Below, one piece after another: positions 16,048 through 32,121 of a stretch of DNA of 64,000 bases. A program made the translations under genes and the position numbers. Position 1 is the first letter of the stretch. Each line of letters begins with the position of its first letter. This DNA is from a virus (Duplodnaviria > Caudoviricetes). Under the pieces are notes generated by a model. The model saw only the letters and a program-made list of their open reading frames with translations, made no database searches and was not told where the DNA came from. The stretch is from positions 32,001 through 96,000 of IMG/VR virus record IMGVR_UViG_3300014208_000026. The stretch is one strand, 5' to 3'.

Positions 16048-16707
16048 ATGAGAGTTCTCGGTCTTGACCCCTCGCTTTCTCAGTTCGGTTGGGCACTCGT
16101 CGAGCTTTCCGGTCCTGAAGGCTATGCTCAGTGCCTGAGTCGTGGAAGGTTGAGGGCGCCTGCTCGCAATTTTCCTGCTTTCGTCCAGCGATACCTCCAC
16201 CAGCGGGACGAGTTGAGAACTGTGATTCAAGAACAGAAACCCGACAAAGTGTCTATCGAGTCCCCCATCTTTGGGGAAATGTACTCGGAGGGCATGTACG
16301 GGCTGTTTCTCTATTGTCACGAGGCTTTGTTGCTGGAAGGTATGGACGCCGTGCATTTCTCTCCTGGACAGACCAAAGCTTGTGCTCGGGAATGCATTCC
16401 GCGTCCTCCGAAGTGGAAGATGGAGAAAGAGGATATGGTCGAGGCCGCCAAAACCGTATCCGGTATCAAGAAGTCCTGGAATCACAACGAGGCGGATGCT
16501 TACTGGGCGGCTCACTTGGGGGCTAGGTTCTGGCTCCTTCGGGAAGGGGCAATCCAGGAAGAACACCTGGGAGCCAGGGAGCGGGATCTCTTCCTGGAGA
16601 TCCACAAGTATATGAAGGGTAAGAAGGCGGGGCAGACGGAGTATTCCGGTCTGCTCTATCGGGAAGACGATCGTTTCTTCCTGTGGTCACAACTGAAGGA
16701 GGCGTAA
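16048..16707 (+). CDS. ruvC: RuvC-like Holliday junction resolvase
   Basis: MRVLGLDPS, IESP, HNEADA. Confidence 0.88.
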   Translation: MRVLGLDPSLSQFGWALVELSGPEGYAQCLSRGRLRAPARNFPAFVQRYLHQRDELRTVIQEQKPDKVSIESPIFGEMYSEGMYGLFLYCHEALLLEGMDAVHFSPGQTKACARECIPRPPKWKMEKEDMVEAAKTVSGIKKSWNHNEADAYWAAHLGARFWLLREGAIQEEHLGARERDLFLEIHKYMKGKKAGQTEYSGLLYREDDRFFLWSQLKEA

Positions 16708-16708
16708 C

Positions 16709-18067
16709 ATGCCAAAAGGCATTCCTAACAAGAAGCGGATTGCTCCCGTAGAGGATCCGGATCAGGGCGAGATCGAAGAGGGTGTTGTCGAAGTCGTCGA
16801 GAAGAATGAAACCCCCAAGGCTTCTATTTCAGGAAAGCCGCCCACGGCCCTGAAGCTGGCCCTGGAGGACCTGAAGAAGGACACCAAGGGCAAAGAAGGT
16901 AGCTACGTGGTGCTGGACCCGAAGCTGCTCACTCAGTCTTTCCCTCACTGGGGGACTGGTTCGATTACTGCCGATTACTACATCGGCGGGGAGCCCAACG
17001 AGAAGGGGGTTGCACCCTGCCCGGGATTGCCCAAGGGGCGTGTGACCCTGCTGTACGGTAGAGAGTCCTCGGGCAAGACCACCCTCGCCCTTACAATGGC
17101 TGCGGCCGTGTGTAAGGCGGGGGGTACTTGCTGTTACATCGACTACGAGCAGGAAGTGAACCTGTCGTGGGCTGAGACTCTGGGGGTGCCGGTCAAGGAC
17201 GAGGCTCGGTTCCAGCTTCACCAGCCGGACAACCTTGACGCAGGGGCCTTCGTAGCTTTGAAGATGATTCAGCGGGGCGTTTCCCTGGTCATTTTCGACT
17301 CGGTCGGAGCTTCTCAGACCAAGGCGGAGAGCCTGAAGGCTCTCGACGAGGCTGCTCGCGTAGGTGCTAACGCTGGGTTCTGGAGTCGAGTGGCTCCCAC
17401 GCTGAAGAACGCCTGCAACAAGTACGGGTCCTCTTTGCTGGCTATTTCCCAGGTTCGTACGAAGGTGGACACTTCGGGCGGTAAGGCCAAGGGGGATCCT
17501 GAGAAGCCCCAGGGCGGGAACATTTGGATGCACGTCCCGAGCGTTCGTATCAAGCTTGTCCGCATCGGCGCTCTGAAGGAAGGGGTTTTCGATCCGTTCC
17601 AGAACAAGATCGAAGACGCCGTGGTCGGCCTGATCGGCAAGATGAAGATCGAGAAGTGCAAGGTCAGCCAGAACATGGGACGTGAGGGGATCTATCACCT
17701 GCGTTCCGGTTTCGGGTTCGACAATCCTACGACGATCATCGAGCTTTGTTCCAAGCACCGTATTGTCCGCAAGGACGGGTCTTGGTTCACGGTCGAAGGT
17801 CCGGACGGGAATGAGTGCCGTGCTCAGGGTCTTCGCGGTTTCCGAGAGAAGGTTCTGAAGGACGAAGCTCTGTTCAAGTTCCTTTGGAGGAAGACCGTTG
17901 AGGCGCTTTCCGCCCACGCCGCTTCTCCCGTAGAGGAAGAAGAGGTGGAGATGGTCGAGGGGGACGACGAAGCAGAAGCTCTGCTGGCGGAACTCTCTGG
18001 GGAGAAGGGTCTGTCCACGGACGGGTCTGAGATCGATGACGACGAAGGCGGGATCGAGGGCGAATAG
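16709..18067 (+). CDS. recA: RecA/UvsX recombinase
   Basis: GLPKGRVTLLYGRESSGKTT, IDYEQ, VIFDSVG, GSWF. Confidence 0.95.
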   Translation: MPKGIPNKKRIAPVEDPDQGEIEEGVVEVVEKNETPKASISGKPPTALKLALEDLKKDTKGKEGSYVVLDPKLLTQSFPHWGTGSITADYYIGGEPNEKGVAPCPGLPKGRVTLLYGRESSGKTTLALTMAAAVCKAGGTCCYIDYEQEVNLSWAETLGVPVKDEARFQLHQPDNLDAGAFVALKMIQRGVSLVIFDSVGASQTKAESLKALDEAARVGANAGFWSRVAPTLKNACNKYGSSLLAISQVRTKVDTSGGKAKGDPEKPQGGNIWMHVPSVRIKLVRIGALKEGVFDPFQNKIEDAVVGLIGKMKIEKCKVSQNMGREGIYHLRSGFGFDNPTTIIELCSKHRIVRKDGSWFTVEGPDGNECRAQGLRGFREKVLKDEALFKFLWRKTVEALSAHAASPVEEEEVEMVEGDDEAEALLAELSGEKGLSTDGSEIDDDEGGIEGE

Positions 18068-18081
18068 ATAGGGGGCCCTAA

Positions 18082-19467
18082 ATGGCTGTCAAAGTCCGCA
18101 TCAAAAATTTCCAGTCACTCAAGGACATCTCCTTTGAAATCAAAGGGATGACGACCATCACGGGCCAGAACAACTCTGGTAAGACCGCTATCATGCGGGC
18201 CCTGCGGGGTGTCTGGGAAAACACGGCTTGTGAGTCCTACATTCGTTCCGGAGAAGCCTATTTCTCGGTTTCGATGGATTTCGAGGACGGGCAGTCCGTG
18301 CTTTGGGAGAAGGGGACTGAGAAGCCAAACGGGAAGGGCGGGACCATCAACCGCTACGTGATCAACGGTGTCACGTACAATGACGTCGGGCAGGGGGTTC
18401 CGGAGGCTCTGGACGCACTCAAAATCACGTCCGTCCAGGCCTCCGGACACACCCTCTGGCCTCAGATCGCCACACAGTTCCCCGACACGCAGCACTCCTC
18501 CCAGGTGTTCCTGCTCGACAAGACGGGTCCGGTGATCGCAGAGGCAATCGCGGACGTGGAAAAGGTCGGGTTGTTGAACAGAGCTTTGAAGGAGTCTGAG
18601 ACTGACCGCAGGACCGCCAACGCCGAACTGAAGACTCGACGTAAGGATGAATCCGAGGTCGCAAAGGGCCTGGAGCGGTTCGAGGGCTTGGAAGAGGTCG
18701 ACGTAGAGGTCATTCGACTTGAAGAGAAGTCGGCCGAGTTGGAGGAAGCCCGTAAAGGGTTGTTGCTCCATATGCTGCTCAGGGAGAAGGTGCAGAAGGC
18801 GGCGGGGGAAGTCTCTCGACTCCTCCCTGTGGAAAAGGTAGCTGTTCCGAGTACCGAGCGGGTTGCAGAACTGGAGGGCGCCCAGAAGAATCTGGCCCTC
18901 CACACCACGTTGCGGGATAGGGTTGTGAGAACCGACAAGGAAGTCTCTCGGCTCCTGCCTATCGAGAAGGTTCTTATCCCTGGGGCCGAGCAAACCGACA
19001 AGCTGCAGAAGTACCAGAAAGCGCTTACCACGGCTTCTAGGCTGAAGGGCTCTCTTGCACAGGCTGCGGCGGAGGTTTCCCGCCTGGGGGGTGTCGAGCA
19101 AGCTATTATCCCTGACGAACCGGTTTCCGTACAAGACCTCGGGGCACAGTTGCGGCAAGCCCACGAGATCCAAGCGGCCATTAAGAAGGCGGCGGGGGAC
19201 GTGGAACGGTACTCCGCGATTGAGGGGGTTGAATTCCCCTCCTCCGATCGGCTCCTGAAGATTCAGAAGACTCTGGGGGAAGCCCTGGACTTCAAGAAGC
19301 GGTTGTCGGGGACTGCCACGGAGGTGGCTTCCCTGACGGGGCAGTTGGAGACCGCTGAGAAGGGGTATATTGCAGCAGGGGTTGAAGTCGACTCCCTGAA
19401 GGCAGAACTGGGAAGCTGTCCTCTCTGCGGAGAGGTTTTCGGTGAAGGACACTTGCATGGATCCTAA
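18082..19467 (+). CDS. sbcC: SbcC/Rad50-like ATPase, N-terminal half ending at the zinc hook
   Basis: IKNFQS, Walker A GQNNSGKT, Q-loop, coiled coil, terminal CPLCG; no Walker B. Confidence 0.85.
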   Translation: MAVKVRIKNFQSLKDISFEIKGMTTITGQNNSGKTAIMRALRGVWENTACESYIRSGEAYFSVSMDFEDGQSVLWEKGTEKPNGKGGTINRYVINGVTYNDVGQGVPEALDALKITSVQASGHTLWPQIATQFPDTQHSSQVFLLDKTGPVIAEAIADVEKVGLLNRALKESETDRRTANAELKTRRKDESEVAKGLERFEGLEEVDVEVIRLEEKSAELEEARKGLLLHMLLREKVQKAAGEVSRLLPVEKVAVPSTERVAELEGAQKNLALHTTLRDRVVRTDKEVSRLLPIEKVLIPGAEQTDKLQKYQKALTTASRLKGSLAQAAAEVSRLGGVEQAIIPDEPVSVQDLGAQLRQAHEIQAAIKKAAGDVERYSAIEGVEFPSSDRLLKIQKTLGEALDFKKRLSGTATEVASLTGQLETAEKGYIAAGVEVDSLKAELGSCPLCGEVFGEGHLHGS

Positions 19468-20770
19468 AATCCTGAAGGCCGCTATTGGGGATAGCCCTGG
19501 TGTCGCCTCGTTGTACTACGGACAGGACGTGCTTGAGACTCTGAAGCAGTTACCGGACCAGTCCGTTCATATGGTGGCAACTTCGCCTCCCTATTTCAAC
19601 TTGCGTTCATATTTGCCCGAAGGGCACCCTGACAAGGCACGTGAAATAGGAGTCGAGGAAACCCCAGAGGAGTACGTCGAGAAGCTGGTTGTGGTGTTCC
19701 GTGAAATCTGGAGAGTGTTACACAACTCGGGTGTGATTTGGATTAATATCGCAGATAGCTATGTGGGTGGCGGGGGCTTTTCCCCTAATGCCCCGTCAAA
19801 TCTGGCAGGTTCTAAGCAGGCTACGCAGGGCGGGGCTAAGCCTGGGGGCGTTAAGCCCTGCGGTAAGCTGAAGCCTAAAGACCTCGTTGGTATCCCCTGG
19901 CTGGTAGCCCTGGCTTTGCGGGATGATGGCTGGTATTTGAGATCCGACTGTATCTGGCATCGGATCAATAGCATGCCAGAGAGCGTTTCGGACCGCTGTA
20001 CTAGAACCCATGAGTACATTTTCATGCTGACCAAGAAGCCTAAGTATTTCTTTGACGCAGAGGCGATCAAAGAAAAGACGGCTGCGGAGACTAGAGACCC
20101 CAGTACGACGGGGGTTACGGATTTTTTCGGATCAAATGAGGACACTTCTGATTCTGTTGATATTGATGTAACGAGAAATCATAGAACAATTTGGTCTTTT
20201 TATTCTCGTCCATATAAAGGCGCTCATTTTGCTACTTTTTGCGAGGAGCTTCCTGAGACCATGATCAAGGCAGGTTCCAGCTCATGGGGTTGTTGCCCTC
20301 GCTGTCTAGCCCCTTGGAAGAGAGTATCGGGGAAGCCCTGCGAGAAGTGCGGCGCTTTCGTCAGAACGGCTGCTGTCAAGTGCCCAGGTTGCGGTCACGT
20401 TCGGGATTGGAAGAAAGGCCGTATGGCCAAGGAAGAACTTCTAGCCGGGAATTTTGATTCCGGGTCGGGAAAGCACGTTCCCAGGTTCCCGGGCAATTAC
20501 AAGAACAACACGGTCTTTGGGGAGTGGGTTCCTACCTGTAACTGTCCGGCCCATGAGCCGGTTCCATGTACCGTGCTGGACCCTTTCAGCGGGTCTGGGA
20601 CTACGGGCAGGGTAGCCCTCCGGCTGAAGCGTAACTACATCGGGATCGATTTGAACAAAGAGTACGAGGCCATGGCCGTCAAGCGAATTGACGGGGTTAC
20701 GGAGCCCGAGGTTTCTACTGACGGAATTCTGGAGCAAGGGACGCTCGTTGTTTTTGGAGCCTCAAAATGA
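19457..20770 (+). CDS. second N6A/N4C DNA methyltransferase with Zn fingers
   Basis: ATSPPY, DPFSGSGTT, CPRC, CEKC and CPGC motifs. Confidence 0.9.
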   Translation: MDPKILKAAIGDSPGVASLYYGQDVLETLKQLPDQSVHMVATSPPYFNLRSYLPEGHPDKAREIGVEETPEEYVEKLVVVFREIWRVLHNSGVIWINIADSYVGGGGFSPNAPSNLAGSKQATQGGAKPGGVKPCGKLKPKDLVGIPWLVALALRDDGWYLRSDCIWHRINSMPESVSDRCTRTHEYIFMLTKKPKYFFDAEAIKEKTAAETRDPSTTGVTDFFGSNEDTSDSVDIDVTRNHRTIWSFYSRPYKGAHFATFCEELPETMIKAGSSSWGCCPRCLAPWKRVSGKPCEKCGAFVRTAAVKCPGCGHVRDWKKGRMAKEELLAGNFDSGSGKHVPRFPGNYKNNTVFGEWVPTCNCPAHEPVPCTVLDPFSGSGTTGRVALRLKRNYIGIDLNKEYEAMAVKRIDGVTEPEVSTDGILEQGTLVVFGASK

Positions 20771-21732
20771 TCAAGCTAGTTTACCGTAAAGACGCTCATC
20801 TTGCCGGACAGTCTCCGCAGTCCCGTAAGGATGACTACGCCGAGTCCATTCTCGCCAAGCTTCGACAGACTGTTGAAATCGCAGAGGAAGAGAACGCGGA
20901 CGCCCTGTTGGACGGTGGGGACCTTTTCCACGTCAAGGCACCGACGAGGAATCCCCACTATCTGACTACCCGTTTGATTGAGGCCCACTACTCCAGGGTT
21001 CGTACGTACCTGACTCCCGGGAACCACGACGTGGTGTACGGGGATATGCAGCACCTCGCCCAACAGCCCCTTGAAGTGTTGTTTGCCTCTGGGGCGATTC
21101 GACGCTTGTACGGAGAGCATGAGGCGGTGTTCGAGCGGGACGGTTTGAAGGTGCGTGTTGTCGGGGTAGCTTATCCTGGCAGGGAGTACGACAAGAGCAT
21201 TCTCGATATCAAGAAGAAGGACGAGGACTACCTCGTTGTGTCCGCACACCTCCTGGCCAGCAGCGAGGGCGGGTCTATGTTCGAGAATGAAGATATCATC
21301 TCCTACAGTGACCTCAAAGGGCTGGATGCTTCGGTCGTGCTGTTTAGTCACTGGCATAAGAACCAGGGCATTGTAGAATTTGCCCCTGGGAAGTGGGTCG
21401 TGAATATCGGGGCTCTCTCCCGAGGGTCTTTGATTCAGGACAACGTGGAGCGCACTCCCTCGGTGGCGGTTCTCTCGTTTACCAAAGAGGGCATTCAGGT
21501 TGTGGAACGGCCTCTGAAGGTTCTGCCTGCGGACGAGGTTTTCGATTTGCAGGGTAGAGTACGAGCGGAAGCCCGTACCATGACCATCGAGGATTTCGTG
21601 ACCCACGTCGATGAAATGCTGTCTCCTACGGTCACGCAATCGTTGGCTGAGACGGTGCGAAACCTGCCTGATATTCCGGAAGCTGTGCGGGAGAAGACTC
21701 TCGATTACATTGAACGAGCTAAGGTAGTCTGA
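20767..21732 (+). CDS. sbcD: SbcD/Mre11-like metallophosphoesterase nuclease
   Basis: DAH, GGDLFH, GNHD, SHWH motifs. Confidence 0.85.
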   Translation: MIKLVYRKDAHLAGQSPQSRKDDYAESILAKLRQTVEIAEEENADALLDGGDLFHVKAPTRNPHYLTTRLIEAHYSRVRTYLTPGNHDVVYGDMQHLAQQPLEVLFASGAIRRLYGEHEAVFERDGLKVRVVGVAYPGREYDKSILDIKKKDEDYLVVSAHLLASSEGGSMFENEDIISYSDLKGLDASVVLFSHWHKNQGIVEFAPGKWVVNIGALSRGSLIQDNVERTPSVAVLSFTKEGIQVVERPLKVLPADEVFDLQGRVRAEARTMTIEDFVTHVDEMLSPTVTQSLAETVRNLPDIPEAVREKTLDYIERAKVV

Positions 21733-21734
21733 CG

Positions 21735-22673
21735 ATGGAACAGCAGAAGATTCTCTATTGGACGGGGTTCGACCGTTACGAAAACTGCCCTCAGCAGTAC
21801 CTATGGTACTACGGCTGGCCCGGAATCGACGTGGGGGGAGGTCCTGGGAAAAAGAAGCCCGTCCCGAAGCAGCGGTCCGAGCACCACCTCCTCATGGGGA
21901 CTGTGATTCAGGCTGTCGTCGAGTGGATGTATCTAACCGAAGCATGGAAGAATCCGGTTACTCTGCGATCTTCCGCTCGGGAGACCCTGGACAAGCGGTT
22001 CGAGCGGGAGTTGGCTCGACGTTTTGTCGACTGGCACGAGGTTACCCGTCAGGAGATTTACGATATCTGCCTGAGCGGGGTAATGGGCTATCTGGATACG
22101 ATGGTTGCCAACCGGTTGGTTGGGGACGTGATGCGGCCCGAGATTGAGTTCATCGGTTGCCTGAAGCAAGACAGCTACCCTATTGCGGTTCGAGCGGACC
22201 TTGTGATTGTTCGCAAGAACACGAACGTTCTGCCTGGGGTGACCGTTCTAGACGGGAAGAATTCCAAGCACAAAGACAAGTACACGAATCCAGATCAGTT
22301 GAGGTGGACCGCCCTTTGCCATTATCTGCGTCAGGGGACTTTGCCAGACCGGTTGGGGTGGTGTTACTACCGATACCCTGCGGGCACTCCCATTCCTGGG
22401 ACGGATCAAGTAGAGACAGGGATTGACTGGGTGTCCTACACTCTGGACGAAGTCAAGGGTCTGGCGGCACGGGCCATCGAGGCTCACGACGGATTGTTGG
22501 CACAGAATTTCGATCCGCATCCGGTTCCGAAGGTCTGCAAGTTCTGTGATTACGAGCCCGTGTGTGAGGCTCGGCAGACTACCAAGAGGCGCCGGAAGCC
22601 CAAGCCAAGTTTGTTTGGGGATGGGGAGGATTGGTCCCCCCGTGAGGTCGAGATCGAGGGAGAGCCTGAATAG
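21735..22673 (+). CDS. Cas4/RecB-like PD-(D/E)XK exonuclease with probable Fe-S cluster
   Basis: N-terminal CP, RADL...LDGK, DQL, C-terminal CKFCxxxxxC. Confidence 0.8.
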   Translation: MEQQKILYWTGFDRYENCPQQYLWYYGWPGIDVGGGPGKKKPVPKQRSEHHLLMGTVIQAVVEWMYLTEAWKNPVTLRSSARETLDKRFERELARRFVDWHEVTRQEIYDICLSGVMGYLDTMVANRLVGDVMRPEIEFIGCLKQDSYPIAVRADLVIVRKNTNVLPGVTVLDGKNSKHKDKYTNPDQLRWTALCHYLRQGTLPDRLGWCYYRYPAGTPIPGTDQVETGIDWVSYTLDEVKGLAARAIEAHDGLLAQNFDPHPVPKVCKFCDYEPVCEARQTTKRRRKPKPSLFGDGEDWSPREVEIEGEPE

Positions 22674-22721
22674 AGTATATAGGGGACTGACGAGTTCACC
22701 GGACTGAGAGGTAAAAAGAAA

Positions 22722-22994
22722 ATGCCGGATCCTACGATGCAGTTGGAAGCCGCTCTCAAGAAGCGGGAGACGCTCTCGAACCTGAAGGAGCGGTTGACAG
22801 GTACTTTGGAAGCCGCTAAGAAGCGTCAGGAAGAGGCTCGGGCGGAATGCCAGAAGCGGGGGATCGACCCCGACAATCTGGACAACGTGATCAAGAAGTT
22901 GGAGACGGCCTTCTCCGAGGGCGTTTCCAAGTTCAGTGCAGATTTGGAAGTTGCGGAAACCAACCTCAAGCCGTTTGCAGGAGAACAAGGATGA
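22722..22994 (+). CDS. small coiled-coil protein
   Basis: 90 aa heptad-rich, strong RBS GAGGT. Confidence 0.75.
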   Translation: MPDPTMQLEAALKKRETLSNLKERLTGTLEAAKKRQEEARAECQKRGIDPDNLDNVIKKLETAFSEGVSKFSADLEVAETNLKPFAGEQG

Positions 22995-24142
22995 AGATTC
23001 AGGTTGCCAGCCAGGACCTCAAGGCCGCGTTCAAGGTTGCGTCGTGCGCCGTGGGTAGTGAGGGCGAAGACGTCCAGACCCATTTCGTGTTCAGGGCTTC
23101 GGACAAGGGGAAGGTGGAGATCCTGTCCTATTCCCAGCGTATCTTCGCCAGTTCCCCTCTGGTCTGCACGGTAGAGGGCGGGCCTTTCTCGTTCACGATG
23201 CGTGCAAAGGATATCCAGAAGTGGGTGCGGGCTCTGCCGGATGAGCTGTTGACGTTGGAATTCGACCAGGGTACCGCCAACGTGGTGGCCAAGGCCAGCA
23301 ATGCCACTGTCCCGTTCGGATCCCTGGATCCGGCCAGTTTCCCCTACTGGGACGGCGAACTGAAGGACGCCAAGGAGATTTCAGAGATTCCGGCCGGTGC
23401 CTATCGTGAGGCCCTGATCTATGCTCGCGGGTTTGCTTCGAAGGAAGACACGCAGCAGCCCGCTCTGTGTGTTGTGCGAGTGCAGGATGGTGTGTGCATG
23501 GCGACGGACCAGACCGGCGTGGTCAAGGTCACTATCCCTTCCCTGAAGGGCACCTCTACCCTGGCCCACACCAAGTACCTCAAGGGTCTGACCGACTACC
23601 TGGGGGGCTTGGGGACGAAGCCGGTCAAGGTGCTCACTCATCCCCGTATGACTGTGTACGTGGGTCCGGATGGGGAATATTTCGGGGAGAGCGCTCACGG
23701 GCTCATGTTCCCCGACCTTTCGATTGACGGGAATATCCAGGACCAGAACTGGTGGGAGTTCAACGTCAAATCGATGCAGTCGGCTATCGAGGCTCTGGGG
23801 GCTACGGCCAAGGACGATGATCAGAAGATCAAGTTCCGTCTCGACCCGCAGGCCAACAAGATCATGATGTCAATGGCTACTCGAACGGGCGGAGAGAGCC
23901 GTTTCGAAGTTCCCTGCCTGGGTTACGGGAAAGAGCCGGACTTCGATATCTACACCGACACTTTCACTTTGGGGAAGGGCCACCTTCTCACGATCCTGGG
24001 CCTGTATACGGACGCCACTGCCCGTCTCGGGGTGAACTACCCTGGAGCCAAGACGAAGACCGGTTGGGTTCGTCAGCGTCGTGTTGTCGCCAGCCCTGAG
24101 GGCGATTGCGAGTTCCTGGCAATCCTTCTCTGGCTGTTCTAG
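22991..24142 (+). CDS. dnaN: DNA polymerase III beta sliding clamp
   Basis: 383 aa, three-domain clamp pattern (SLDPASFP, MATDQ, FPDL); ATG 22991. Confidence 0.8.
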   Translation: MKIQVASQDLKAAFKVASCAVGSEGEDVQTHFVFRASDKGKVEILSYSQRIFASSPLVCTVEGGPFSFTMRAKDIQKWVRALPDELLTLEFDQGTANVVAKASNATVPFGSLDPASFPYWDGELKDAKEISEIPAGAYREALIYARGFASKEDTQQPALCVVRVQDGVCMATDQTGVVKVTIPSLKGTSTLAHTKYLKGLTDYLGGLGTKPVKVLTHPRMTVYVGPDGEYFGESAHGLMFPDLSIDGNIQDQNWWEFNVKSMQSAIEALGATAKDDDQKIKFRLDPQANKIMMSMATRTGGESRFEVPCLGYGKEPDFDIYTDTFTLGKGHLLTILGLYTDATARLGVNYPGAKTKTGWVRQRRVVASPEGDCEFLAILLWLF

Positions 24143-24153
24143 GAGACAAGACT

Positions 24154-24567
24154 TTGGAACCTCTAGTCTTATACTTGAGCAGACAGTTGGGGTTGGGGGT
24201 TTCCTGCAACGCTCTATGCCAGGAGTTGCTGGACGACCAGTCTTTGCTGGGGCGGGCCTATCCCCGGGTGTGTCGCAGTCGCGTAGCGGCACAGCTTAGG
24301 GCCCAGACAAAAATCCGCAAAGCTCTGGATTGTTCTTTCAAGCCTCTATTTGCGTGGTTCCTGGAACGCAAAGCGGGCCAGACCTGGGACGTGGTCAGTA
24401 AGCAGGTTGTTTTGGCGGGTAGTGTGAAGGAGGCTCGCGTGTTGGCTTCTGAAAAGGCCGGAGAAGAAGGGGCTCGGTGTTGGTTGTCGGGGCGACGGTC
24501 TACATGCACCCGACTCCCCTCTGTGGAAGGGCCTGCTCGTGCTCTTGTCAACAATTACGCAGGCTAG
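24154..24567 (+). CDS. hypothetical protein
   Basis: TTG start after AGGAGA; fills the gap between genes. Confidence 0.5.
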   Translation: MEPLVLYLSRQLGLGVSCNALCQELLDDQSLLGRAYPRVCRSRVAAQLRAQTKIRKALDCSFKPLFAWFLERKAGQTWDVVSKQVVLAGSVKEARVLASEKAGEEGARCWLSGRRSTCTRLPSVEGPARALVNNYAG

Positions 24568-24575
24568 GCTTTAAG

Positions 24576-25220
24576 ATGGAACCTCTTCTGGCTGTCCCCG
24601 CGATTACACCCCTTCGCTCAAAGCTGGAGAGGGTGAAGGGAGTTCGAGACGGCGAGCAGCTTCGTCTCTCTACCCTCCAGAAAGCTATCAAGAAGTTGGA
24701 AGAGGACGAAGAACTTCTGAGTCTGGTTTCCGCCCTCCTGCGTTCCCTGATTGATAAGGAAGTGGAAGCAGGGAAGCAGGTCATCGAACGTTTGCAGACC
24801 GAGGCGTTGCAGGCGGTGTTCGATGATCAGGATATTTCCCTGCGAGCGGAACTTTCCATCCAGAGGAACAAGGTAGCCGTCGAGTTGGTGACTGTCCAGA
24901 AGCAAGAGGACGGCACGGTGAATCAAGGTATCAGTTCGGACGCTTTCGGCGGGGCTGTGACTACGGTAGAATCCGTGCTGATGCGTATCGTCGTGATCCT
25001 GCGCCGAGAGCTTCGTAGGATTCTGTTGTTGGACGAGAGCCTTCCGGCGTTCGATCCCAACTACGTGACGAACATGGCGAAGTTCCTCTCCCTGTTGTGT
25101 GCTAAGCTGGGCTTGGATATTTTGCTCATTAGTCACAACCCCGTTCTGATTGAAGGGAGCGATAGCGCCCTCACACTGGTCAAGAAGGGCAATTTCGCCA
25201 AACTGACAAGGCTTCGTTAA
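24576..25220 (+). CDS. sbcC: SbcC/Rad50-like ATPase, C-terminal half
   Basis: Coiled coil, then signature-like SDAFGGA, Walker B LLLDES, D-loop AFD, H-loop ISHN. Confidence 0.85.
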   Translation: MEPLLAVPAITPLRSKLERVKGVRDGEQLRLSTLQKAIKKLEEDEELLSLVSALLRSLIDKEVEAGKQVIERLQTEALQAVFDDQDISLRAELSIQRNKVAVELVTVQKQEDGTVNQGISSDAFGGAVTTVESVLMRIVVILRRELRRILLLDESLPAFDPNYVTNMAKFLSLLCAKLGLDILLISHNPVLIEGSDSALTLVKKGNFAKLTRLR

Positions 25221-25221
25221 A

Positions 25222-25800
25222 ATGAGCACTGCTCAACGTACCGGAATGAAGCGTCGGAAGGAAGTTGAACAGAAGCTCCGACAGGTACGTTTCCGGCACT
25301 TGAAGGTCTATTTGAACGAGAAGCTGAAGCGAGCCGCCTGTAACTGTGAGTTTTCGGGCTGCTACCCCCAGGGAACAGAGGCCACTTGTGCTCATGCAGC
25401 CCTCCTTGACGTCCCCTATCGTATCTGCGATTCCAGGTTCGGAGGGGATAAGATCGCTCAGGTGTGTCCTCATTTCCAGGCCAAGCTGGGGGTCGAGCAG
25501 TACAAGGAAGAGTTCCGGCAACTCATGACCCGCAGTCGGGCTGAGATTGCTCAACGGTATCCTGATATCGCGGCTCTCATGTGGGTGCTCGGTGAGGATT
25601 TCGTGCAGGATATTCAATTGGAGGCTGATGATGTCTGGTCTGAAACCGAAACCCCGCAAGATTCTGGCTCTGCACCTGGACCAGATGACGAAGCCTGTAC
25701 CCGAGCGGGCCTCGGAGAAGGCGCCGACCTCACCGGCAGAGTGCCCGAAGGTGCCTCGCAAGAACCACGACCTTCTGGGGCGGGGGACACTGCCTCTTAA
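25222..25800 (+). CDS. Cys-rich hypothetical protein
   Basis: 192 aa ORF with several Cys/His clusters. Confidence 0.6.
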   Translation: MSTAQRTGMKRRKEVEQKLRQVRFRHLKVYLNEKLKRAACNCEFSGCYPQGTEATCAHAALLDVPYRICDSRFGGDKIAQVCPHFQAKLGVEQYKEEFRQLMTRSRAEIAQRYPDIAALMWVLGEDFVQDIQLEADDVWSETETPQDSGSAPGPDDEACTRAGLGEGADLTGRVPEGASQEPRPSGAGDTAS

Positions 25801-26341
25801 AGAAGGGACCCTGCTCGTAGAGTTTCCTGTTCACCCTGGACTCGCTCCTTACTTGGTTACAGGGGCTTCGAAGCCCCATCTTTGGATTGAGCGGGCTTTT
25901 GGCAAGGGCGGTAGGGGTGCTTACGTCCGTCTCGCGGTGAAGTCCCAGGAAAAGGATCTCGGAGCCTACTACTGGTCCATGGTGGAGACTTTGAGTCAGC
26001 GGAGTGATCAGTCCGGATGGGGGAGCATATTCAAGGCCACTCCGGAGGTGCCTTTTGAGGAAACCATCCGTAAGGCTCTCCAGTATGTTCTCTCGTTCGA
26101 TATCAGCGAGGTCGAGGTGTTGGTCCATCCCGACTGTGCAGATTCTGCCATGAAGGCCGTGGCTCCTGAATTTGTGACTCCGGTTACGTGGTTCAAGACC
26201 CCTTGTTGCGTGGTGGTGCCCAGGGATCGCGATTTCCTGGGGGCTCTCCTGGCCGTGTCCCCTGGAAGGTTTGTGGGGATCGTCCACAATGCCAGTCGTG
26301 GTTTTGCAATGGCTGTCCCGACTGCGGGGGTCGCGGTTTGA
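25751..26341 (+). CDS. hypothetical protein (start uncertain)
   Basis: Open frame ending in a TTGA overlap with the primase start. Confidence 0.55.
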   Translation: MPRKNHDLLGRGTLPLKEGTLLVEFPVHPGLAPYLVTGASKPHLWIERAFGKGGRGAYVRLAVKSQEKDLGAYYWSMVETLSQRSDQSGWGSIFKATPEVPFEETIRKALQYVLSFDISEVEVLVHPDCADSAMKAVAPEFVTPVTWFKTPCCVVVPRDRDFLGALLAVSPGRFVGIVHNASRGFAMAVPTAGVAV

Positions 26342-27036
26342 GAGCGTGGCTTGAAGAGGCTCTGTCGAATACTGAGTTGCCGGAGGACGCAATAGGGTAT
26401 CTATTACGGCGTGGCGCCAAACCCGAGACCTACACGAAGATGGGGGTTACAGTTTGGCAGGCTCCGGAAGCGGTAGCGCCGGACCAGAGCCGCAAAGACC
26501 GGTATGGCCCCAGGTGGGAGAAGCTTCAGGGACGGCTTGCTATCCCGCTAGTATCCCCCGCAGGTAAGGTAATTGGGGTCGAGTTTCGAGGGATGGAGCA
26601 GAAGAAGTTGGATCGGTATCTGCTCCCCGAGGCGGAGTGGAATCCGGTCTGGCATATGATTCCAGGGTCCGTGGAGGCTCTGTGGGCTGGACGTCCTGCG
26701 TGGTTGGTTGAGGGGGCTTTCGATATGTACGCCATGGAATGGGCGGCCCCTGGAGACGGTATTTTCGCAGTGCTGAGGGCGGCTCTTTCCAGGAAGCAAA
26801 TTGAGTTCCTGAGGCGGTTTGCCTCTTTCGTGAATGTTTGTTTCGACAGGGATAAGCCCGGGTTGGAAGGCATGCATGGAGGAAAGGACAAGACCGGTAA
26901 GTTTCATCCTGGGGCGTTGTACCTCCTCAGGAAGGCCGAGATCGCGTGTGCAGAGGTTGTTTTCCGGGGGGGTAAAGACCCCGGTGAATTGTGGGATGCA
27001 AGGGGTCGGGACATGACGGCATGTTTCGGTCGCTAG
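26338..27036 (+). CDS. dnaG: DnaG-like primase, TOPRIM core only
   Basis: VIGVEFR, WLVEGAFD, CFDRDKPG, GKDPGE; no N-terminal zinc-binding domain. Confidence 0.8.
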   Translation: MRAWLEEALSNTELPEDAIGYLLRRGAKPETYTKMGVTVWQAPEAVAPDQSRKDRYGPRWEKLQGRLAIPLVSPAGKVIGVEFRGMEQKKLDRYLLPEAEWNPVWHMIPGSVEALWAGRPAWLVEGAFDMYAMEWAAPGDGIFAVLRAALSRKQIEFLRRFASFVNVCFDRDKPGLEGMHGGKDKTGKFHPGALYLLRKAEIACAEVVFRGGKDPGELWDARGRDMTACFGR

Positions 27037-31308: not shown

Positions 31309-32121
31309 ATGGATGACAAGCAACTCCGAAAAACTTTGGTGCGGTTGGCTCACCAGAAGCCCGAGCTTCGTGGGAGGCTTCTGCCCCTGATCCGTACCGC
31401 GGCAGTGAAGCGTCCGGAAGAGTTCAAGCACCTCAAACGTTACACCTCTTCTGATCTGCGGGAGTTCTGTGACTCTCTGTACACGAAGAATTTCCTCCGG
31501 ATGAAAACCCACGACGCCTGGAAAACAGGGATGCTCCTCTCCTCTCCTATGTACGCTCTGGGTTCGGGGTTGTTGGGTTCGTTTGGCGGGCCAGTGGGCA
31601 AGGCGATCCGTGAACGTTCATTGAAACCGATTCTTGCAGGGGCTGCGGACCCAGGCGGGAAGATTCTGGACGGTATCCTGCGTACGATTGGGCCGGACAA
31701 CGTTTTGGAACTGATGTCAGGGGAAAAATACGCTTTCATCACCTGGATTACGGACAACGGGGAAAACGTTGTGTCGGTGTCTTTCCTCCCTGACAAAGAG
31801 AAGAAGGCCCCTGGCGTTGGAATGAAAGTTTTTGAAATCACGGACTACCTTCAGGCTCATGGTCTGATTCCGTCCGGCGGTGGTTCCCAGTGGAATTACT
31901 ATGGTCTGGAAAGCAAACCTGGGGAGGGACCCTTCGTTCGTCTTGGGAAGAGGACGATTCGATTGGTGTGGCGTAGTCGGCGTACGGATCAGTGGGCTCC
32001 AGGTAGGAAAGGTCCGTTGATGGATGGCGGGGCGGACCGTGAATATGCGTTCGGGAACACCACTCCTGCAATGCTGGACGGCATGATCGAGTACGTGAAA
32101 AAACACTCGAAGGGGCGGTAA
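31309..32121 (+). CDS. putative virion cargo protein with N-terminal tag
   Basis: LRKTLVRLAHQKPELRGRLLPLIRTAA. Confidence 0.75.
   Translation: MDDKQLRKTLVRLAHQKPELRGRLLPLIRTAAVKRPEEFKHLKRYTSSDLREFCDSLYTKNFLRMKTHDAWKTGMLLSSPMYALGSGLLGSFGGPVGKAIRERSLKPILAGAADPGGKILDGILRTIGPDNVLELMSGEKYAFITWITDNGENVVSVSFLPDKEKKAPGVGMKVFEITDYLQAHGLIPSGGGSQWNYYGLESKPGEGPFVRLGKRTIRLVWRSRRTDQWAPGRKGPLMDGGADREYAFGNTTPAMLDGMIEYVKKHSKGR

Follow-up and report, generated by a model that had tools for sequence, protein, structure and literature searches.

The window analysed here, a stretch of 64,000 nucleotides (nt) comprising positions 32,001 to 96,000 of the IMG/VR record IMGVR_UViG_3300014208_000026 (Caudoviricetes), contains two genes that very probably make one Rad50/SbcC-type ATPase. 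The whole record spans 257 kb and is rated by CheckV as only ~49% complete, which points to a huge phage as its source. The first gene, hereafter the N-half, encodes the Walker A motif, the Q-loop and a long helical arm, and ends shortly after a putative zinc hook. The second, the C-half, encodes one long helix followed by a signature-like motif, Walker B, the D-loop and the H-loop. They are separated by 5.1 kb and five genes, in a compact cluster encoded entirely on the plus strand. In the textbook view, Rad50 and SbcC are each one chain that doubles back on itself at the zinc hook. An earlier reading of this DNA, made from the sequence alone, had proposed a Rad50/SbcC split at the hook, with an SbcD gene between the pieces. 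The nuclease gene was found where it had been placed, and the split itself is supported by complementary motifs, folds, copy number and linkage, as described below.

The AlphaFold2 (AF2) model of the N-half, with a predicted local distance difference test score (pLDDT) of 82, shows a beta-rich lobe at residues 1-125. The Q-loop lies in the sequence WPQIATQF, and Q132 is kept in at least 90% of the relatives. Foldseek matched the model to the N-terminal chains of Rad50 (1f2u_A at E 1e-5, and 9a9j_A), while a structure search independent of Foldseek returned the heads of SMC proteins, Rad50, RecF and RecN at VIA Z 8-11.5 over residues 1-200; the wide structure search of this model covered mainly residues 1-228. 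Since the SMC, RecF and RecN heads score alike, the modelled fold alone does not single out Rad50. At the level of sequence profiles, the N-half matches Rad50 heads, and its last helix together with the CPxC motif aligns to the hook crystal structures 6zff_A and 1l8d_A (E ~2e-4). The C-terminus reads ...SCPLCGEVFGEGHLHGS, with the stop codon 12 residues past CPLC; the gene with Walker A, Q-loop and coiled coil that had been described as stopping right after CPLCG is confirmed.

The model of the C-half (pLDDT 82) consists of one helix at residues 10-81 followed by an alpha/beta lobe. Its motifs are DAFGG, the Walker B sequence ILLLDE (D153 and E154), the D-loop SLPAFD and the H-loop histidine H187, so that the short coiled coil recognised earlier in this gene holds up in the model and the four ATPase motifs in 33 relatives; what the sequence-only reading described of the two genes is thus borne out on all points. 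Among these relatives, G125, G126, D153, E154, L156, P157, A158, D160 and H187 are invariant, and F124 is present in at least 90%. The start codon, an ATG at 24576, agrees with the starts of the relatives. Foldseek placed the C-half with the C-terminal chains of Pyrococcus furiosus Rad50 (3qkr_B at E 3e-7, 1f2t_B, 1ii8_B and 9a9j_B) and also with SMC heads, and its profile matches Rad50 C-terminal chains at E 2.5e-4.

Matches to the Pfam family SMC_N fall into two complementary parts, one on the N-half (positions 4-50) and one on the C-half (137-218). Both parts are present once per genome in the record of the window and in three relatives, two of which are at least 93% complete. No other SMC_N-like gene was found in these four, and a search of them for another partner of either half elsewhere in the genome likewise found none. 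The SbcD gene also occurs once per genome and adjoins the N-half in many relatives. The locus thus holds Walker A, the Q-loop, the signature-like, Walker B, D-loop and H-loop motifs, the head fold, the CxxC hook motif and an Mre11/SbcD gene; what it lacks of Rad50/SbcC is the single chain that folds back at the hook with matched antiparallel strands. The complementary motifs, the Rad50-like folds of both halves, the one-to-one copy number and the conserved linkage point to a Rad50/SbcC-like ATPase in pieces, cut directly after the hook, that would work with the SbcD encoded between them. Such a complex would be expected to bind DNA ends in an ATP-dependent manner and to stimulate the nuclease.

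The arrangement was compared with that of related phages in 76 IMG/VR loci, which were fetched and annotated by script. In most loci with enough flanking sequence the genes follow the order RecA, N-half, SbcD, PD-(D/E)XK nuclease, a gene for a helical protein of about 90 amino acids (aa), clamp, C-half and a gene for a four-cysteine protein. Variable cargo slots follow the N-half and SbcD, the first of which holds a methyltransferase in the window. In every copy readable to its end, the N-half stops 3-17 residues after C(P)xC. Conservation of the two halves, of the point at which they are cut and of the gene order across 76 loci shows that the asymmetry of the arms is more than a matter of chance; the split is no accident, pseudogene or assembly artefact.

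The two halves are also widespread. Close relatives of the C-half number 287, with lengths of 184-226 aa; relatives of the N-half number 95, almost all in the range 340-505 aa, and several of these proteins share a contig. At E<=1e-3, an exhaustive profile search with the C-half returned 3,091 cluster representatives, of which 1,168 passed E<=1e-10. Among the best 150 of these matches there was no full-length form, almost all being 200-230 aa long, and a word-based search among longer proteins for relatives of the C-half found no fused form either, which is weak evidence. The same layout is present in an uncultured phage of 485 kb (LR745208.1) at 31% and 50% identity, and the split also occurs in the cultured phages 0305phi8-36, phBC6A51, vB_BboS-125 and Mvi-JY20. 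In one subgroup of the loci (mainly L061-L079, also L056 and L058), the block of PD-(D/E)XK nuclease, 90-aa gene, clamp and C-half is intact and the other two genes lie elsewhere and on different strands, the N-half at 14 to ~50 kb and SbcD at up to ~70 kb from the C-half. Three records of this subgroup (G001, G002 and G003, those of L066, L069 and L058; two of them 93-100% complete) contain each gene exactly once.

The arm of the N-half comprises 287 residues and the helix of the C-half 72, close to the asymmetry of about 270 against about 70 aa noted at the outset. Helices are predicted at residues 149-157, 159-199, 203-247, 258-291, 302-335, 350-378 and 388-443 in the AF2 monomer, which gives no packing information and was read for secondary structure only. 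Anchors of the EV.RL type recur at residues 243, 287, 331, 373 and 414, with a period of 41-44, and each repeat consists of a helix of 29-56 residues followed by a proline-containing linker. The top PDB profile match of the arm, 4u08_A (LIC11098), was taken as repeat or low-complexity noise. With ~240 helical residues in the arm, against 72 in the C-half helix and ~75 in the 90-aa protein, most of the arm past its first 70-90 residues has no return strand of its own. The arms of relatives differ by whole repeats of ~44 residues: the lengths of 87 N-half relatives cluster near 365, 410, 445 and 487-504 aa, one repeat apart. Because the repeat number changes in single steps, a simple zigzag of the repeats would flip the hook round at each step. 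Collinear repeats would avoid this; they could pair between two identical N-halves, or else each arm could be lined by multiple copies of the small protein.

The hook itself varies in what follows it. Five relatives (L022, L028, L029, L037 and L047) have tails of the form CPFCGxxHExxxC, with four possible zinc ligands per chain, and other lineages have a bare CPxC followed by 3-4 residues. Since some relatives lack the extra ligands, the conserved unit of the hook is CPxC alone, and a zinc site with four ligands would need a second chain. Zinc binding by this motif is predicted from its sequence. Two homologs of the N-half (L019:3406-5652, 749 aa, and L022:2638-4761, 708 aa) carry an intein with Hint and LAGLIDADG domains just after Walker A; inteins inserted in Walker A are typical of essential genes.

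The 90-aa gene is invariably located between the two halves. Its 53 distinct sequences are 84-108 aa long (nearly all 84-98) and share the core motif RL.GRLE...KGIDP..L. Profile comparison by hhalign connected the family to 0305phi8-36 gp7 (E 1.5e-6), to vB_BboS-125 gp34 over the full length (E 2.7e-8) and to BC1854 of phBC6A51 (E 5.9e-6), whereas a 94-aa gene that precedes the C-half in Mvi-JY20 showed no detectable similarity to it. The profile had no significant match to that of the N-half (8% probability) or of the C-half (19%). Compared with PDB sequences, it found no Rad50 hook chain and only a weak match to RecX (3dfg_A, E 0.005), and a protein atlas search returned unnamed viral clusters only. 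The RecX match spans KGIDP..L and probably reflects only a shared helix-turn-helix pattern, though the gene does lie in a RecA cluster. As the protein travels with the split across very distant phages, always between the two halves, it is likely a subunit, and its position fits an origin by gene fission. We therefore regard it as a conserved companion of the split and probably as a subunit of the complex.

How the long arm is completed can be explained in more than one way. The sequence-only reading had suggested that the 90-aa coiled-coil gene supplies part of the missing arm. The part of this claim that stands is that the gene encodes a real helical companion, conserved with the split in four phage lineages, as the hhalign matches to gp7, gp34 and BC1854 indicate. 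A three-piece Rad50, in which this protein would be a remnant of the descending coil and pair with part of the N-half arm, such as the last helix below the hook, is conceivable but doubtful. Its gene is collinear with an ancestral single gene, and in the shortest class of N-halves (~365 aa) the two helices of the 90-aa protein and the C-half helix together nearly equal the helical length of the arm. However, the protein is fixed in length while the arm changes by whole repeats, so that it cannot be a co-extensive return strand, and it resembles neither the hook or coil chains of Rad50 nor the arm of the N-half nor the helix of the C-half. Furthermore, where the genes scatter it remains in the block of nuclease, clamp and C-half and does not accompany the N-half, and its stop codon overlaps the start of the clamp gene (ATGA). 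A check for gene fusion gave the same picture, as two C-half relatives with 85-100 extra N-terminal residues (P0322 and P0343) showed no similarity to the 90-aa protein.

A different solution would be for the arms of two N-half chains to pair in parallel and in register, closed by a shared zinc, in which case the return strand would be unneeded; we consider this, too, possible and rather unlikely. Two identical chains always match, and this would explain how the repeat number can shift one unit at a time with no change in the length of the partner proteins, and without the turning of the hook that a zigzag entails; the minimal CPxC, in need of a second chain for its four ligands, agrees with such pairing. 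Against it, the pairing is something we purely infer, the proline-rich linkers would break up a continuous coiled coil, and the CPFCGxxHExxxC tails of some lineages would allow an intramolecular zinc site.

That the two genes are functionally unrelated, each a degenerate ABC fragment that has a separate role or partner, is very improbable. The subgroup with the genes 14-50 kb apart on different strands would fit this explanation, but neither half has a full ATP site, the halves co-occur in every genome examined across four phage lineages, and there is exactly one of each per genome with no further SMC_N-like gene. Even less credible, to the point of being negligible, is the idea that the gene is broken, that the assembly is wrong or that a split intein rejoins the two products as protein: the same cut site recurs in 76 loci at 25-57% identity with five conserved genes between the halves, the post-hook tails of 3-17 residues are far too short for a split-intein fragment, and the inteins that do occur sit at Walker A. 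Several observations nevertheless weigh against a single Rad50/SbcC-type ATPase made by the two genes. The signature of the C-half is FGG in place of SGG, some 200 residues of the arm have no evident partner strand, and the physical assembly of the two chains is one that we infer. In addition, the halves and SbcD lie 14-70 kb apart in one subgroup, so that their co-regulation is not guaranteed, and the record of the window itself is only about half (~49%) complete.

The two-gene Rad50/SbcC-type ATPase shares with T4 gp46/gp47, E. coli SbcC/SbcD and archaeal and eukaryotic Rad50/Mre11 the ABC head motifs, the CPxC hook, the Mre11-type nuclease and an association in the genome with genes for a recombinase and a clamp. 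Whereas gp46, SbcC and Rad50 are single fold-back chains whose outgoing and returning coils are equal in length, the phage form is encoded by two genes, with the hook at the C-terminus of its first chain, a returning helix of only 72 residues and a variable number of 44-residue repeats. The best fold matches are engineered two-chain heads of P. furiosus Rad50 (1F2T/1F2U, 1II8, 3QKR and 9A9J), in which separate N and C chains form one head. These are laboratory truncations without arm or hook, while the phage split is natural and leaves the whole arm and the hook on the N chain.

Among the cultured phages, Bacillus phage 0305phi8-36 has the same family with the same cut. Its gp8 ends in CPTC followed by 17 residues and differs in having an Mre11 domain fused in front of the N-half, gp7 (92 aa) is the small helical protein, gp6 comes next, and gp5, annotated as 'ATPase', is the C-half. 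One P-loop NTPase segment of the SbcC of this phage 'was not observed', and gp5 was left unconnected to it (Yoshida et al. 2011, PMC3175470). In the Bacillus prophage phBC6A51, BC1852 ('SbcC', ending in CPLC followed by 11 residues), BC1853, BC1854 (77 aa) and BC1855 ('chromosome segregation ATPase') follow one another, with SbcD two genes on. Both this phage and vB_BboS-125 (gp32, gp34 and gp35) have an N-half ending in CPLC, a small helical protein and a C-half of 211 aa. Their genomes are small, temperate or siphovirus genomes in which the pieces are adjacent, unlike the widely spaced pair of the window. Microcystis phage Mvi-JY20 follows the same plan of N-half and C-half.

Public annotations label the C-half a 'chromosome segregation ATPase', an 'ABC transporter ATPase' or a hypothetical protein. 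In L088 (NC_004820.1) and L089 (NC_048735.1) it is given as 'chromosome segregation ATPase' or 'ATPase' and the N-half as 'SbcC' or 'exonuclease', and the two are not linked. Literature searches turned up no account of a naturally split Rad50/SbcC, and a 2026 preprint on viral Mre11-Rad50 fusions treats Mre11 and Rad50 as separate genes and makes no mention of a split Rad50. If the two genes do make one enzyme, these annotations should be corrected: the C-half would be part of a Rad50-type ATPase, and the N-half has so far been read as a Rad50 that lacks one ATPase segment.

In the assembly that we propose, the N-half would provide lobe I of the head, with Walker A and the Q-loop, and the C-half lobe II, with the signature, Walker B, D-loop and H-loop. 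The 72-residue C-half helix would most likely run antiparallel to the first 70-90 residues of the N-half arm, so that a single ABC head on a short coiled-coil stalk results, as in the two-chain catalytic-domain constructs of P. furiosus Rad50 in the PDB. Two of these heads would come together around ATP and engage an SbcD/Mre11 nuclease dimer. Past the stalk the N-half would run on alone, through two to five or more repeats of ~44 residues, and its terminal CPxC could join a second N-half through zinc. T4 gp46/gp47 process DNA ends for recombination-dependent replication, and the complex would process ends for the same purpose together with the RecA/UvsX-type recombinase, the PD-(D/E)XK nuclease and the clamp of the same cluster. 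Both the pairing of the arms and this biological role are presumptive.

This would amount to Rad50 function without a fold-back antiparallel arm: one outward-running chain built of modular 44-residue repeats and ending in the hook, stiffened by paired identical chains or by a small helical protein acting in trans. We put this slightly below an even chance. If true, it would add a third design for the arm of an SMC-like protein. Current models of arm zipping and of signalling to the head rest on the fold-back picture, and a natural, ancient and very common two-chain form that retains head, hook and nuclease partner while dropping most of the return strand would raise the question of what the arm must do. 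It would also offer a simple system for study, with separable chains, a tunable number of repeats and cultured Bacillus phages.

The features of the locus and its flanks are given in Table 1.

Table 1. Genes and sequence features of the split Rad50/SbcC locus (positions in the window).
Feature	Position	Strand	Evidence and remarks
RecA/UvsX-type recombinase, first gene of the conserved cluster	16709..18067	+	Pfam RecA 102 bits; phrog_97 UvsX-like; precedes the N-half in most related loci
Probable Rad50/SbcC N-half (ABC lobe I, helical arm, putative C-terminal zinc hook), 461 aa	18082..19467	+	AAA_23 41.3 bits (cut-off 27)
Walker A codons, GQNNSGKT, residues 28-35 of the N-half	18163..18186	+	G28, N31, G33 and K34 invariant in 53 relatives
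Arm repeats of the N-half, five units, residues 203-443	18688..19410	+	EV.RL-type anchors; AF2 helices
Putative zinc hook CPLC, residues 446-449 of the N-half	19417..19428	+	C446, P447 and C449 invariant in 53 relatives
N6/N4 DNA methyltransferase, cargo of the variable slot between N-half and SbcD	19457..20770	+	N6_N4_Mtase 143 bits
SbcD/Mre11-like nuclease (phosphoesterase), 321 aa	20767..21732	+	Metallophos 42.5 bits; phrog_100 SbcD-like; best solved relatives P. furiosus Mre11
PD-(D/E)XK exonuclease	21735..22673	+	PDDEXK_1 30 bits; phrog_69 exonuclease; conserved in the cluster
90-aa helical protein with a central G-I-D-P turn, candidate third subunit	22722..22994	+	In all loci holding the block
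Sliding clamp	22991..24142	+	phrog_947 processivity factor 86 bits
433-nt spacer	24143..24575		Absent in relatives, where clamp and C-half abut
Probable Rad50/SbcC C-half (one 72-residue helix and ABC lobe II), 214 aa	24576..25220	+	phrog_15167 ATPase; fold and profile matches
Signature-like FGG (residues 124-126) to Walker B ILLLDE (149-154) of the C-half	24945..25037	+	Conserved in 33 relatives
Four-cysteine protein after the C-half	25222..25800	+	Conserved neighbour; without Pfam or PHROG family

Many relatives have nothing in the slot that separates the N-half from SbcD, and methyltransferases occupy it in only two other loci (L038 and L051). The spacer before the C-half is overlapped by an open reading frame at 24106-24567 (153 aa, TTG start) without homologs or a family match. 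A scan of positions 16500-26500 for promoters and terminators gave counts no higher than those in shuffled sequence. Finally, the four-cysteine protein has four invariant cysteines and a start of the form KLxQVRFRHLK, with an acidic low-complexity tail in the copy of the window, and its gene is found directly 3' of the C-half, or at most ~2 kb from it, in nearly every related locus.

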